Assembly: GCA_963843975.1 (NCBI GenBank)
Contig: CAWJMG010000003.1
Span: forward strand, 1,800,001 to 1,832,000
DNA length: 32,000 nt
Direction of reading: 5' to 3'
DNA from: an uncultured Actinomycetes bacterium
GTDB lineage: Bacteria; Actinomycetota; Actinomycetes; S36-B12; CAIYMF01
Shown: positions 14,650 to 19,717 of the stretch, piece after piece
How positions within the stretch are numbered: the stretch's first letter is position 1
Layout of the letters: each line of letters begins with the position of its first letter
Notes under the pieces: model-generated
The model's database searches: none
Seen by the model: the letters and a program-made list of their open reading frames with translations, nothing else
What the model was told of the DNA's origin: nothing
Position numbers and translations under genes: made by a program

Positions 14650-14991
14650 GTGCACCGGATCTTCACCACGAGCGTCGCCTCGGTCTATCCCCACTACGTC
14701 ACCAAGGTGGAGAAGAAGGGGCGGACCAAGGACGAGCTCGACCGGGCCATCACGTGGCTCACCGGGTTCGACGAGCCGACGCTGCAGCAGCACCTCGACG
14801 CCGGCACGACGTTCGAGGACTTCTTCGCCACGGCCCACCTGAACCCGAACGCTTCCCTCATCACGGGCAGCGTCTGCGGCGTGAAGGTGCAGGAGGTGGA
14901 GGACCCCCTGATGCGGCAGATCCGCTACCTCGACAAGCTCGTCGACGAGCTCGCCAAGGGTCGACCGATGGAGAAGGTCCTGCGCTCGTGA
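14650..14991 (+). CDS. DUF2200-family protein
   Basis: [37 protein letters not shown] is the DUF2200 signature. The start is GTG. Confidence 0.8.
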
Positions 14992-15410
14992 GCGGGTCCG
15001 ACTGGGAGGCGCTGAAGCGGCTCGCCGAGGAGGGCGACGACGACGCCGCCACCGAGCTCGCGGAGCTGGCGGCCGATCGCGGAGACACGGCCACGCTGAC
15101 CTTCCTCGTCGACAACGGCTACGAGGAGGCGGCCGGCCTGCTTGCCGGGCTCGCCGCGGGCGAGGGCGACATCACGACGCTGCGTGCGCTGGTGGACAGT
15201 GGCAGCGAGGACGCCGCCGCCGCCCTGCTGGCGCTCGCCGTCGAGACGAAGGACGAGGCACAGCTGCAGTACCTCGTCGACAGGGGGCACGGGCCCGCGG
15301 CTGACCGCTGGGCCGAGATCGCTTCTGCCCGAGGTGATACGGAACTGCTCCAGCGACTCGTGGACGAGGGCAGCGAGGTCGCGGAGCGACTCCTGGGCTC
15401 AGCCGACTGA
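14988..15410 (+). CDS. acidic helical-repeat protein (about 4.5 tandem 28-aa repeats)
   Basis: GTG 14988 overlaps the upstream stop (GTGA). The repeats are [84 protein letters not shown] and [27 protein letters not shown]. Confidence 0.65.
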
Positions 15411-15436
15411 GCGCGACGCTGAGCTGACCGGCGGCG

Positions 15437-16237
15437 TCAGTTCGGCGGGACGAGCGTGCCGGCGAAGACCTGCCAGGCCAGAAGCGACTTCGCCACGAGG
15501 CTCAGGGTGATGTAGACGGTCTCGCCGTACAGGTAGTCGCGCCACGTGCCGACCCGGCGGTACTGCAGCCACTGGTTGAGCGCGAAGCAGTTGAAGAAGA
15601 TGAACAGCGACACGAAGATCGCGTAGACGAATCCGGGCGGGCTGACGGCGTTGCCCGGGCTCACGAGATAGATGCCGATCGCGATCCACGGCGTGACGCC
15701 GGCGATGCAGCCGAGCCAGAACGGGAGCATCCCGCCACCGGGCTTCTCGTACTTCTCCTGCAGCAGGCCGAACAGGATCATCGAGACGTTGACGCCGAAC
15801 AGCGCGACGAGCGCCGCGATGTCGCTGATGCCGGTGATCATCGCGATGAGCACGATCATCACGGAAGAGCTCAGCGAGTACTCGATCCAGCGGGCGTAGT
15901 TGCGACTCAGGCGGAGGTTGGCGCGGTACCAGGGGAAGACCTGAGGCGAGGCGATGATGAAGTGCGCCGCTGCGGAGAGCAGCAGGAACAGCGCGCAGCC
16001 CCAGGCGATGCTGACGTCGAACAGCGTCGCGGGGGCAGCCGGCTTCGAGCCGGGCGGTCCGGTCATGAAGGCTGCCGTCACCGGCAGGGCGAACGAGGTG
16101 GCGAGTGCGATCACCGCGATTGCCTGGACGGCGTGCAGCACGCCCATGAACAGGTTGTAGCGCCGCAGCCGCGTGAACCTGGCCTCTGGGATGTCGTCGC
16201 CTGCCGGCAGCTCGGTCGCGTGCTCGGTGGTGGTCAC
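15437..16237 (-). CDS. heliorhodopsin (7-TM retinal protein, inverted topology family)
   Basis: 266 aa. WIEYSLSSSVMIVLIA (counterion Glu), FGVNVSMILFGLLQEKY, LPFWLGCIAGVTPWIAIGIYLV, PGFVYAIFVSLFIFFN and SLVAKSLLAWQVFAGTLVPPN closely parallel heliorhodopsin 48C12. The Schiff-base Lys codon is at 15488-15490. GTG 16237 is the only plausible start upstream of helix A. Confidence 0.9.
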   Translation of the reverse strand: MTTTEHATELPAGDDIPEARFTRLRRYNLFMGVLHAVQAIAVIALATSFALPVTAAFMTGPPGSKPAAPATLFDVSIAWGCALFLLLSAAAHFIIASPQVFPWYRANLRLSRNYARWIEYSLSSSVMIVLIAMITGISDIAALVALFGVNVSMILFGLLQEKYEKPGGGMLPFWLGCIAGVTPWIAIGIYLVSPGNAVSPPGFVYAIFVSLFIFFNCFALNQWLQYRRVGTWRDYLYGETVYITLSLVAKSLLAWQVFAGTLVPPN

Positions 16238-16302
16238 CTTTCGAACGTACCCGGATCGGCGGGATCCTGCTCCCAGGCAGTCGGCGCCCGCTGGTCCACG
16301 GG

Positions 16303-16990
16303 CTACGCGTGAACTGCGTGCTGGTGGGCGAGGCCGTCGAGGATCAGGCCGAGCGTGAACTCGAACTCCGACTGGCTGTCGCACCAGCCCAGCGGGTCCT
16401 CGGCGTTGTCGTGGAGCTCGGACGCGACCATCGCCGTGAGGTGGGGGAAGACCTCGGCCATCGCGGCCATCTCGGCCTCGACCTCGGCGCCGGGATCGGC
16501 GTCGCCCTGGGGCACCGCGAAGATCTCCTGCGTGTAGCCGAGGACCATGCTGCCCAGCGAGTGCAGGCCGCGGTGCGCGAGGTGATAGCTGAGGCCGCCC
16601 TCGACCATGGTGGCGAGCACCTGCTCGACATGGGCCACGAGGCTCATCGGCACGTGGGTGCGCGTGGCGATGAGCTCGGGGCCCCACCGGTGCTGCACGA
16701 CGACCTCGCGGGCGGCCATGCAGCGGTCGCGCAGCGACGTCCGCCAGTCCGCGGACGGGGCGCGCTCGGGTGCGGCGGCCGCGATCTCCACGATCAGTGC
16801 GTCGGCGAGGCCGTCGAGGAGCTGCTCCTTGCTGGGCACGTGGTGGTAGAGCGACATGGCCTCCACCCCGAGGCTCGGAGGCCACCCGCCTCATGGTGAC
16901 GGCGGCGAGCCCGTCGACGTCGGCCACGGTCATGGCGGTCGCCAGCACGCGCTCGCGGCTGAGCGTGCCGCGCACGGCGTCTGCCGTCAT
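16303..16990 (-). pseudogene. TetR/AcrR-family regulator interrupted by a +1 frameshift (or sequencing error)
   Basis: The N-terminal HTH part MTADAVRGTLSRERVLATAMTVADVDGLAAVTMRRVAS is in one frame. The continuation (LGV)EAMSLYHHVPSKEQLLDGLADAL and the C-terminal domain are in another. Removing one C from GAGCCTCGG (plus-strand GG at 16872-16873) restores ...RRVASELGVEAMSLYHHV. Confidence 0.75.
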
Positions 16991-17015
16991 CGAGCCTCCT
17001 CCTGGACGCCGACCA

Positions 17016-17048
17016 CCTTACCGTGTAAGGATGCCTTACAACGTAAGG
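17016..17048. promoter_or_regulatory. twin palindromic operators CCTTACCGTGTAAGG and CCTTACAACGTAAGG
   Basis: Two 15-bp 6-3-6 palindromes (17016-17030 and 17034-17048) are 3 bp apart. They lie in the divergent region between the TetR gene (start 16990) and the DUF4386 gene (ATG 17073). Confidence 0.65.
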
Positions 17049-17072
17049 TTCACCTCGACCGGAGGCTCTCCC

Positions 17073-17795
17073 ATGACCACGACCGCGGCACCCGCCGTCC
17101 CCCACACCGACGAGGCCCGCGCCGGCCTGGTGCGCACGGCCCGCGTGACCGGCCTGCTCTACCTGGGCGTCGCCGTCACCGGCGGCCTCGGCTTCCTGTT
17201 CGTCCGCACCCAGCTCTTCGTCGAGGGCGACCCCGCGGCCACGCTGGCGAACCTCGTCGAGAACCCGGGCCTCGCCCGGCTCGGCGTGGTGCTCGAGCTG
17301 GGCCTCGTGCTCACCCAGGCCCTGTGCGCGCTCTGGTTCTTCAGGCTCTTCCGCTCGGTCGACGCCTTCGCCGCCGGATGCATCGCGGTCTTCGGCACCG
17401 TGAACGCCGTCGCGCTCCTCGGCAGTGCTGCGGCGCTCGCCACCGCGATCGACGTGGCCGGAGGTGCGCTCGAGAACCCGGGGACCGACGCCGCGACGGC
17501 GCAGCTGCTCTACCTCGTGAGCGGGCACCTGTGGGGAGTCGGCGCGCTGTTCTTCGGCCTCTGGCTCATCCCCATGGGCTGGTTGGCGCGTCGCTCCGGG
17601 TGGATGCCGGCCGCTCTCGGCTGGCTGCTCATGGTCAGCGGTGTCGGCTACATCCTCGGCGCGTTCGTCACGTACGCCGCTCCCTCGGCGGGCGGCCTGG
17701 CCGACGTGCTGACCTTCCCGGCGGTGATCGGCGAGCTCTGGATGGTTGGCTACCTGATCATCATCGGCGTCCGCCGTACGGTCGCCTCGCCCTGA
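17073..17795 (+). CDS. DUF4386-family integral membrane protein
   Basis: 240 aa with a GGAGG RBS 7 nt upstream. The segments RVTGLLYLGVAVTGGLGFLFV and WLIPMGWLARRSGWMP are typical of DUF4386. Confidence 0.7.
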   Translation: MTTTAAPAVPHTDEARAGLVRTARVTGLLYLGVAVTGGLGFLFVRTQLFVEGDPAATLANLVENPGLARLGVVLELGLVLTQALCALWFFRLFRSVDAFAAGCIAVFGTVNAVALLGSAAALATAIDVAGGALENPGTDAATAQLLYLVSGHLWGVGALFFGLWLIPMGWLARRSGWMPAALGWLLMVSGVGYILGAFVTYAAPSAGGLADVLTFPAVIGELWMVGYLIIIGVRRTVASP

Positions 17796-17906: not shown

Positions 17907-18899
17907 ATGACCGAACCTGAGATCGAGGCCCAGGGCCTGAAGCGCTCCTTCGGCACCACGCTGGCCGTCGACGGTGTGGACCTGTCTCTCGCCCGAGGCG
18001 AGATCTACGGCTTCCTCGGGCCGAACGGCGCCGGCAAGTCGACGGTCACGCGCGTGCTGTGCACGCTCATCTCCCCCACCGGCGGCAGCGCCCGCGTGGC
18101 GGGCTACGACGTCGCGACCCAGGCCGACCAGGTGCGCCTGCGCATCGGCGTCGCCCTGCAGGAGGCCGCTCTCGACGCCAAGCAGACAGGCCTGGAGTTG
18201 CTGCGGCTGCAGGGCCGCTTCTACGGGCTCTCGAAGTCGGACACCGAGCGGCGGCTCGCCGACCTGCGCGAGCTCATCGACATCGGCAGCGCGCTCGAGG
18301 ATCGTGTCGCGACGTACTCCGGCGGCATGAAGCGCCGGCTCGACCTCGCGCTCGCGCTGGTGCACAACCCGCGGGTGCTGTTCCTCGACGAGCCGACGAC
18401 GGGCCTCGACCCCACGAGCCGCGTGCGCGTGTGGGACGAGGTACGGCGGCTCAACACCGAGCTCGGGATGACGGTGTTCCTGACGACGCAGTACCTCGAG
18501 GAGGCCGACGAGCTGGCCGACCGCGTCGGCATCATCGACCACGGCCGCATCGTGGCCGAGGGCACTCCGGACGAGCTGAAGCGGTCGATCGGCACCGACC
18601 TGGTCATCGCGGTCGTCGACGGCGACCCCGAGATCGCGCGGTCGGCGCTGCTGCCCCTTCCCGGCGTCGAGCGCGTCGACGTCAACGGCAGCGAGGTGAC
18701 GGCCGCGGTCAGCAACGGCCCCGAGGCGATCAGCCCTGTGGCCATCGCGCTCGCCGGTGCCGGTGGAGGGCTGCGCGTGCGCGAGCTGTCGCTGCGCACG
18801 CCCACCTTGGACGACGTGTTCCTGTCGGTGACGGGCGCGCGACTGGCGGACCGCGAGTCCGGAACCGACGGCGACGAGCAGGCGGAGGTGGAGTCATGA
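17907..18899 (+). CDS. ABC transporter ATP-binding protein (DrrA-like, ABC-2 type)
   Basis: It has Walker A GPNGAGKST, the signature YSGGMKRRLDLA and Walker B VLFLDEPTTGLD, plus a C-terminal extension. Confidence 0.9.
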   Translation: MTEPEIEAQGLKRSFGTTLAVDGVDLSLARGEIYGFLGPNGAGKSTVTRVLCTLISPTGGSARVAGYDVATQADQVRLRIGVALQEAALDAKQTGLELLRLQGRFYGLSKSDTERRLADLRELIDIGSALEDRVATYSGGMKRRLDLALALVHNPRVLFLDEPTTGLDPTSRVRVWDEVRRLNTELGMTVFLTTQYLEEADELADRVGIIDHGRIVAEGTPDELKRSIGTDLVIAVVDGDPEIARSALLPLPGVERVDVNGSEVTAAVSNGPEAISPVAIALAGAGGGLRVRELSLRTPTLDDVFLSVTGARLADRESGTDGDEQAEVES

Positions 18900-19717
18900 G
18901 CTCCCAGACGGCAGCTGTACGACCTGACCCGCACTCCGACGACGTGATCGCCCGGCATGCGGGCTTTGCGCGCGACCTCACGTCCGTGGCCATCCGCGCG
19001 CTGCGGCAGATCCCGCGGGAGCCCGAGGCGATCATCCCCGCCTTGATCATCCCGGTGTTCTTCTTCGTCGTGAACGTCGGATCGCTGTCAGGCGTGGCCG
19101 AAGCCACGGGCATCACCGACTTCAAGGCGTTCCAGCTGCCTGTCGCGATCATCTTCGCCGTCACCGGCGTCTCTCGGGCAAGCGCGCTCGTGACCGACAT
19201 CAACGACGGCTACTTCGACCGGCTCCTGCTCACGCCGATGAGCCGCCCGGCGCTGCTCCTCGGCCTCATGGTCGCCGACTTCACGCTCGTCATCGCCCTG
19301 TCGATCCCCGTGCTCATCCTGGGCGCGCTCGTCGGCGTCAGCTTTGCGACGGGCCCGCTCGGCATCCTCGCGTTCCTGCTCCTCGCCGGCCTGTGGGGCC
19401 TCGCCTTCACGGGCTTCCCCTACGCGATCGCCTTGAAGACCGGCAACCCGGCGGCGGTCAACTCCAGCTTCCTGCTGTTCTTCCCGTTCGCGTTCCTCAC
19501 CACGGCGTTCCTGCCGCAGGAGGCGCTCACGGGATGGCTGTCCACGGTGGCGACGTACAACCCCGTGACGTATGTGCTCGCCGCGCTGCGGTCGCTCATC
19601 ACGGGCGGCTGGCAGCTCACGCCGCTGCTGCAGGGCACGGCGGCGATCCTCGCCGTCGCGGCCGTGAGTCACACCCTCGCCTTCATGGCGTTGCGCGGCC
19701 GAGTCTCGCGCGGCTGA
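18896..19717 (+). CDS. ABC-2 type transporter permease
   Basis: 273 aa with six hydrophobic segments. It has an ATGA overlap with the ATPase gene. The motif FLPQEALTGWLSTVATYNPVTY is typical of ABC-2 permeases. Confidence 0.85.
   Translation: MSSQTAAVRPDPHSDDVIARHAGFARDLTSVAIRALRQIPREPEAIIPALIIPVFFFVVNVGSLSGVAEATGITDFKAFQLPVAIIFAVTGVSRASALVTDINDGYFDRLLLTPMSRPALLLGLMVADFTLVIALSIPVLILGALVGVSFATGPLGILAFLLLAGLWGLAFTGFPYAIALKTGNPAAVNSSFLLFFPFAFLTTAFLPQEALTGWLSTVATYNPVTYVLAALRSLITGGWQLTPLLQGTAAILAVAAVSHTLAFMALRGRVSRG

Follow-up and report, generated by a model that had tools for sequence, protein, structure and literature searches.

The window analysed here is a stretch of 32,000 nucleotides (G000:C3:1800001-1832000) from a MAG-like genome assembly of 4.19 Mb in 3 contigs, which is 93% complete, has a GC content of 71.6% and carries at least one frameshift near the gene of interest. 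The host is a GC-rich freshwater or soil-type actinobacterium. Near the middle of the window lies a heliorhodopsin gene, here called helR, with a TetR-family gene upstream of it on the same strand and a group of plus-strand genes beyond. The features of the locus, in window coordinates, are:

15437..16237, minus strand: helR coding sequence, a 48C12-type heliorhodopsin of 266 codons plus a TGA stop (15439-15437), with a GTG start at 16237-16235
16235..16237, minus strand: GTG start codon, placed by orthologue alignment, and predicted transcription start site (+1 at G 16237 or a few nt away)
16249-16244, minus strand: -10 hexamer TACGTT of the TANNNT class, with 6 nt between its end and the start codon
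16238..16302, minus strand: 65-nt TetR-helR spacer, from the TetR stop TAG (16305-16303) to the helR start, containing the predicted promoter
16303-16990, minus strand: frameshifted TetR-family gene, upstream of helR
17070-17795, plus strand: DUF4386 gene, divergent from the TetR gene
17907-18899, plus strand: DrrA-like ABC ATPase (PF00005 plus a DrrA C-terminal domain)
18896-19717, plus strand: ABC-2 permease

At the level of sequence, the helR product is certain to be a heliorhodopsin. The Pfam Heliorhodopsin model PF18761 is matched end to end (E 1.8e-103, 345.5 bits against a cut-off of 26.7), with residues 24-262 of the product spanning the model from position 1 to 242 (of 242). Against the NCBIfam HeR equivalog NF038020 it reaches 336.3 bits, where the cut-off is 100. 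Among solved structures, HeR 48C12 and related proteins match best (9ljj, 6su3, 6uh3; E ~3e-86), and TaHeR (6is6) ranks after this group. The original prediction of a 266-aa heliorhodopsin is borne out by both family models and by 57% identity to 48C12, and re-reading the sequence found its coordinates to be correct throughout (Lys codon 15488-15490, TACGTT 16249-16244 and GTG 16237). A genome-wide search recovered one heliorhodopsin gene. helR is an ordinary, intact new heliorhodopsin of an already known family, and its analysis alters nothing known about that family.

The hallmark residues of the family, one Lys, one Glu and two His, had been picked out from sequence motifs. Alignment to 48C12 (structure 6su3) places these same residues at K250, E119, H35 and H92, encoded at the following positions:

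15490-15488, minus strand: AAG codon of Lys250 (SLVAKS), the retinal Schiff-base lysine in helix 7, equivalent to 48C12 K241
15883-15881, minus strand: codon of Glu119 (RWIEYSLSSS), the Schiff-base counterion in helix 3, equivalent to 48C12 E107
16133..16135, minus strand: codon of His35 (LHAVQ), equivalent to 48C12 H23
15962..15964, minus strand: codon of His92 (AAAHFII), equivalent to 48C12 H80

Additionally, S246 aligns with S237 of 48C12. With few gaps, the product can be aligned to residues 10-255 of the solved 7-TM structure, and a hydropathy scan yielded 6-7 segments with helices 3 and 4 merged. The four arginines found just before TM1 (RFTRLRR) fit a cytoplasmic N-terminus (N-in). Homology over its whole length to HeR 48C12 suggests that the product is a seven-helix membrane protein, in which all-trans retinal would be bound at K250 with E119 as the counterion and H35 and H92 nearby. 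By analogy with the family, it may act as a light sensor with a slow photocycle, modulating a partner protein by contact and without ion pumping.

GTG 16237, originally singled out as the only usable start, has an ATG or GTG as its aligned counterpart in each of the close orthologues. The helR frame remains open upstream to 16990, ~750 nt past this codon, in a stretch that is a high-GC shadow over the TetR gene, and two further in-frame codons could serve as the true start. GTG 16384, the sole other upstream candidate, lies within the TetR coding region and would give a 49-aa N-terminal extension overlapping TetR, while ATG 16147 (M31), the next in-frame start downstream, lies inside helix 1 (TM1). 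However, the extension is Arg/Pro-rich shadow-frame sequence that is unconserved among the orthologues and absent from the closest of them, that of genus member G020, where an in-frame stop occurs 66 nt upstream of the helR start. Initiation at M31, in turn, would cost the protein its conserved FTRLRRYN segment as well as the first positions of the Pfam match, which begins at residue 24. We therefore regard a true start at either codon as highly improbable and take GTG 16237 as the start of helR.

With this start codon, the helR mRNA very probably begins at the GTG itself. The hexamer TACGTT is separated from the GTG by the six nucleotides CGAAAG (16243-16238, minus strand). No Shine-Dalgarno site with usable spacing precedes GTG 16237; the sole purine run, GAAAGG, abuts and overlaps the GTG (spacing 0). 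In contrast, the TetR and DUF4386 genes carry a plain GGAGG 5-7 nt before their ATGs. When 15200-17200 was scanned for promoters and terminators of the E. coli type, no promoter was called, which is expected if an actinobacterial promoter lacks a -35 element; the one terminator-like site called was intragenic and spurious. When RNA folds were compared with those of shuffled sequences, no significant hairpin was detected in the TetR-helR spacer (z-score -0.19) and the helR 3' end did not differ from the shuffles (z-score -0.65). We propose that the housekeeping sigma factor would recognise TACGTT as the -10 box, unaided by a conserved -35 element, that transcription would start at, or a few nt from, the G of GTG 16237, and that the ribosome and initiator tRNA would load on the 5'-terminal GTG without Shine-Dalgarno contact.

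The same signature occurs throughout the host genome. Our sample comprised 25,782 in-frame ATG/GTG codons in the 5' halves of 2,954 long, high-GC3 ORFs. TANNNT was found before 255 of these codons at offset 6 and before 143 at offset 7, against ~12 at other offsets, an enrichment of 12-20 times at 6-7 nt. At this background (~12 in 25,782 per offset), the chance of a TANNNT at offsets 6 and 7 together is ~0.1%. A start of this class was present in 397 of the 2,954 ORFs (13%), GTG and ATG being used about equally (207 vs 191), and no -35 consensus was seen in the class. The base preferred directly before the start in the 6-nt class is C (70%); in helR this base is G. These numbers fit published surveys. 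Leaderless genes are marked by a TANNNT whose first T stands ~12 nt ahead of the start codon, and they average ~19% in Actinobacteria (PMC3160421). Of the M. tuberculosis genes that have a primary TSS, 26% are leaderless and carry a TANNNT -10 element but no -35 (PMC3898074).

Judged by this signature, the leaderless start type is routine in the host genome and no peculiarity of helR. The original prediction of a leaderless start, with TACGTT ending 6 nt before the GTG, is supported by the spacing, the lack of a Shine-Dalgarno site, the orthologues described below and the genome-wide mode. What does not stand is any reading of it as a special trait, since at least 13% of long ORFs in this genome share it. 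Leaderless expression of a heliorhodopsin is unsurprising for an actinobacterium; no paper treating heliorhodopsins together with leaderless expression was found in the library searched.

Comparison of orthologues shows how closely the box and the start codon are kept together. In nine of nine same-genus orthologues, exactly 6 nt separate the box from the ATG or GTG that follows; the box reads TACGTT (7), TACATT (1) or TAGGTT (1), and neither the spacer nor the upstream 50 nt is conserved among them. With the five next-closest relatives included (66-87% identity), the set grows to 14 orthologues of at least 66% identity, and in 14/14 a TAnnnT box precedes the ATG or GTG by 6 nt (7 nt in one), the variants being TACGTT, TACATT, TAGGTT, TACCTT and TAGGCT. 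The spacers of these orthologues vary and contain no Shine-Dalgarno sequence. Across a wider heliorhodopsin set, the TANNNT-spacer-start architecture was present at 17/88 loci, compared with 3/170 out-of-frame control starts, and many loci from MAGs labelled Chloroflexota or Dehalococcoidia instead have a purine-rich match (AAGG, GAGG, GGAGG) 3-16 nt before the likely start. Because distant loci differ in this way, the leaderless trait belongs to the clade of helR and not to the heliorhodopsin family.

These data also bear on whether helR is mainly co-transcribed with the TetR gene, in which case translation would begin at an internal GTG lacking a Shine-Dalgarno site and TACGTT would be minor or non-functional. 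The two genes do share a strand with only 65 nt between them, neither a hairpin nor a terminator was detected in that interval, and the TetR-helR order is kept in G020. However, in 7/8 of the other genus orthologues and in all of the more distant ones the upstream gene differs, yet the TAnnnT-N6-start arrangement is kept. Additionally, internal initiation at such a GTG would be inefficient, and TACGTT sits at exactly the modal leaderless offset of the genome. Predominant co-transcription with TetR thus appears unlikely. Some read-through may occur because there is no terminator-like structure between the two genes, and transcripts with a 5' leader from the TetR side may coexist with the leaderless mRNA. 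Since the neighbouring genes are common only to G020, the box-spacer-start unit travels with helR, which argues for a promoter of its own. Clean limits for the start codon and promoter of a high-GC heliorhodopsin gene are useful for annotation and for heterologous expression.

The genes around helR have some features of their own. The TetR gene is broken near 16866-16875: the helR frame encodes its HTH N-terminus (MTADAV...RRVASE), and a different frame encodes the remainder (EAMSLYHHVPSKEQLL...). Both parts share a single frame in G020. Here, either the gene is a true pseudogene or the assembly has a single-base error. The interval separating the divergent starts of TetR and DUF4386 contains two adjacent palindromes, CCTTAC-GTT-GTAAGG (17048-17034) and CCTTAC-ACG-GTAAGG (17030-17016), which from their sequence and position at 17016-17048 are likely TetR operators. 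The other side of helR is occupied by a DUF2200 gene, convergent to it, and by a gene for a repeat protein. The latter (14991-15410, plus strand), directly after DUF2200 and convergent to helR, encodes an acidic helical-repeat protein of ~139 aa with no Pfam match. G020 keeps DUF2200 next to helR but yielded no match to the repeat gene.

The ABC-2 transporter and the DUF4386 protein had been put forward as candidate heliorhodopsin partners. This suggestion is unlikely to hold, as their linkage to helR is kept in one relative only. The TetR/DUF4386/ABC-2/DUF2200 context is common only to G020, every other genus member having a different helR context, and among 11 loci from the genus and near relatives only helR and its shadow frames were common to more than three. 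A functional version of the suggestion is that helR is coupled to a TetR-controlled DUF4386 gene and a DrrAB-like ABC-2 exporter, the heliorhodopsin modulating transport under light in the manner of OcHeR with OmrDE. An ABC ATPase and an ABC-2 permease indeed lie 1.7-3.5 kb from helR, and up-regulation of an ABC exporter has been demonstrated for one heliorhodopsin (PMC11109279). However, the transporter genes here are on the opposite strand with TetR and DUF4386 in between, and they are of the DrrAB/ABC-2 type and not of the heterodimeric OmrDE type. In the ABC-linked heliorhodopsins described in the literature, helR is preceded by the transporter genes on its own strand within a single operon (PMC11109279), whereas the ABC genes here (17907-19717) are on the plus strand, opposite to helR. 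With the linkage found only in G020, coupling of this kind is very unlikely, and the TetR, DUF4386 and ABC-2 neighbours in general are unlikely to be heliorhodopsin partners.

A stand-alone helR is the common case, since 61% of helR genes overall and ~81% of those in Actinobacteria are predicted to be transcribed separately from their neighbours (PMC11109279). Within the genus, the gene neighbourhood gives no lead to a heliorhodopsin partner, and the adjacent ABC-2 exporter is an unlikely one. As no neighbour is conserved, the partner would be encoded elsewhere in the genome.

We also asked where the retinal for this protein would come from. No retinal-pathway families were found in the genes flanking helR (~13.5-20.6 kb), and every genome-wide match to Blh, CrtB, CrtI or the cyclase domain lies outside the window, in keeping with the original observation that no blh or crt gene is visible there. 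A search of the genome for crtEBIY/blh, which had been proposed as a check, recovered CrtB, CrtI, CrtYc/Yd, a polyprenyl synthase and Blh. The genes of interest on contig C3 are:

C3:1657615-1658610: Brp/Blh beta-carotene dioxygenase (PF15461, 125.7 bits; TIGR03753, 137 bits against a cut-off of 95)
C3:1656647-1657465: type-1 rhodopsin, directly before blh, the pair lying 157 kb from helR
C3:1033641: CrtI (TIGR02734, 516 bits)
~C3:1024390: second CrtI/CrtD-like desaturase
C3:1040765: CrtB-like phytoene synthase (PF00494, 231 bits)
~C3:1044000-1044900: two adjacent lycopene-cyclase-domain genes of the CrtYc/Yd type (TIGR03462, 70.6 and 40.6 bits)
C3:1030507: polyprenyl diphosphate synthase, of which only the C-terminal half was recovered, a frameshift being a possible cause

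The desaturase, polyprenyl synthase, CrtI, CrtB and CrtYc/CrtYd genes form a loose carotenoid region (C3:1023955-1044900) with unrelated genes between them. A cyclase of the CrtY/CrtL type (PF05834) was considered and rejected, as its model gave only sub-threshold matches to the dinucleotide-binding N-terminus; the cyclase is of the heterodimeric CrtYc/Yd type. Retinal would be supplied by the polyprenyl synthase, CrtB, CrtI and CrtYc/Yd encoded ~770 kb away together with Blh 157 kb away, provided that these enzymes are active as their families predict. The type-1 rhodopsin has its nearest relatives in the xanthorhodopsin/Gloeobacter rhodopsin group (E 5e-90 to 8e-66) and shows the D-T-E pattern in DWLLTVPLLLLE, and on the strength of these two features it is a probable proton pump. 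A host that is predicted to make its own retinal and that also has a rhodopsin of the proton-pump type is a reasonable natural system in which to ask what a heliorhodopsin adds.

The distribution of these genes was surveyed in 25 genomes sampled from the genus. Heliorhodopsin was present in 12, of which 9 also have a type-1 rhodopsin and 6 have blh; among the 13 genomes without heliorhodopsin, only 1 has a type-1 rhodopsin or blh. Because the 25 genomes are related and partly incomplete, these counts are descriptive only. In one genome, helR, a type-1 rhodopsin and blh lie within ~7 kb of one contig (G011:C21:35369-42573), a small rhodopsin island in which helR is ~4.6 kb from the rhodopsin-blh pair. 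In another, the helR orthologue is split over three frames (G010:C2:275628-276391); this assembly has few contigs and a completeness of only 49%, which suggests indel errors. A second, divergent heliorhodopsin paralogue (44-46% identity) was found at G011:C4:37939-38670 and G008:C3:17123-17908 and is absent from the host genome.

Taken together, we consider it likely that helR encodes a functional, single-copy heliorhodopsin of the 48C12 type, expressed as a monocistronic leaderless mRNA. Work in mycobacteria points to a relatively larger contribution of leaderless mRNAs when cells are starved or grow slowly. A more speculative and rather doubtful reading is that helR has long been kept in its clade as a self-contained leaderless cassette that moves between contexts and is co-distributed within the genus with a xanthorhodopsin-type pump and blh. 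Such a cassette would tie heliorhodopsin production, and light sensing via a partner encoded elsewhere, to non-growing states and not to a neighbouring gene.

With regard to known systems, the predicted helR start resembles those of actinobacterial leaderless genes in the TSS maps of M. tuberculosis, Streptomyces and Corynebacterium, sharing with them a TANNNT -10 element, no conserved -35 element, a first T 12 nt before the ATG or GTG start and no Shine-Dalgarno sequence. It differs from these mapped genes in that its transcription start is predicted and its -1 base is G in place of the preferred C. The resemblance to OcHeR-OmrDE of Ornithinimicrobium cerasi, where a heliorhodopsin modulates an ABC multidrug exporter (PMC11109279), extends to an actinobacterial heliorhodopsin with ABC exporter genes nearby. 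Unlike in that system, the exporter near helR is ABC-2/DrrAB-like and on the opposite strand, with a divergent TetR promoter, no shared operon and an unconserved linkage.

The closest parallels are found in heliorhodopsins themselves. The closest public orthologues, 87-91% identical, occur in MAGs labelled Candidatus Nanopelagicales bacterium or uncultured Actinomycetota (for example JANXWJ010000051, JANMBJ010000427 and CAWIXB010000001) and have the same TAnnnT-N6-ATG/GTG start as helR, although their neighbourhoods differ. The counterpart with a solved structure is HeR 48C12, from a freshwater actinobacterial fosmid (PDB 6su3/6su4/6uh3), which is 57% identical over 243 aligned residues, aligns with the helR product across all seven helices and agrees with it in length and family models. 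The helR product differs in an acidic, probably cytoplasmic N-terminus that is 12 residues longer and in one- and two-residue deletions in two loops. At the probed positions of 48C12 the two proteins are identical in 20/20 cases, comprising H23, H80, E107, S237, K241 and 15 others.
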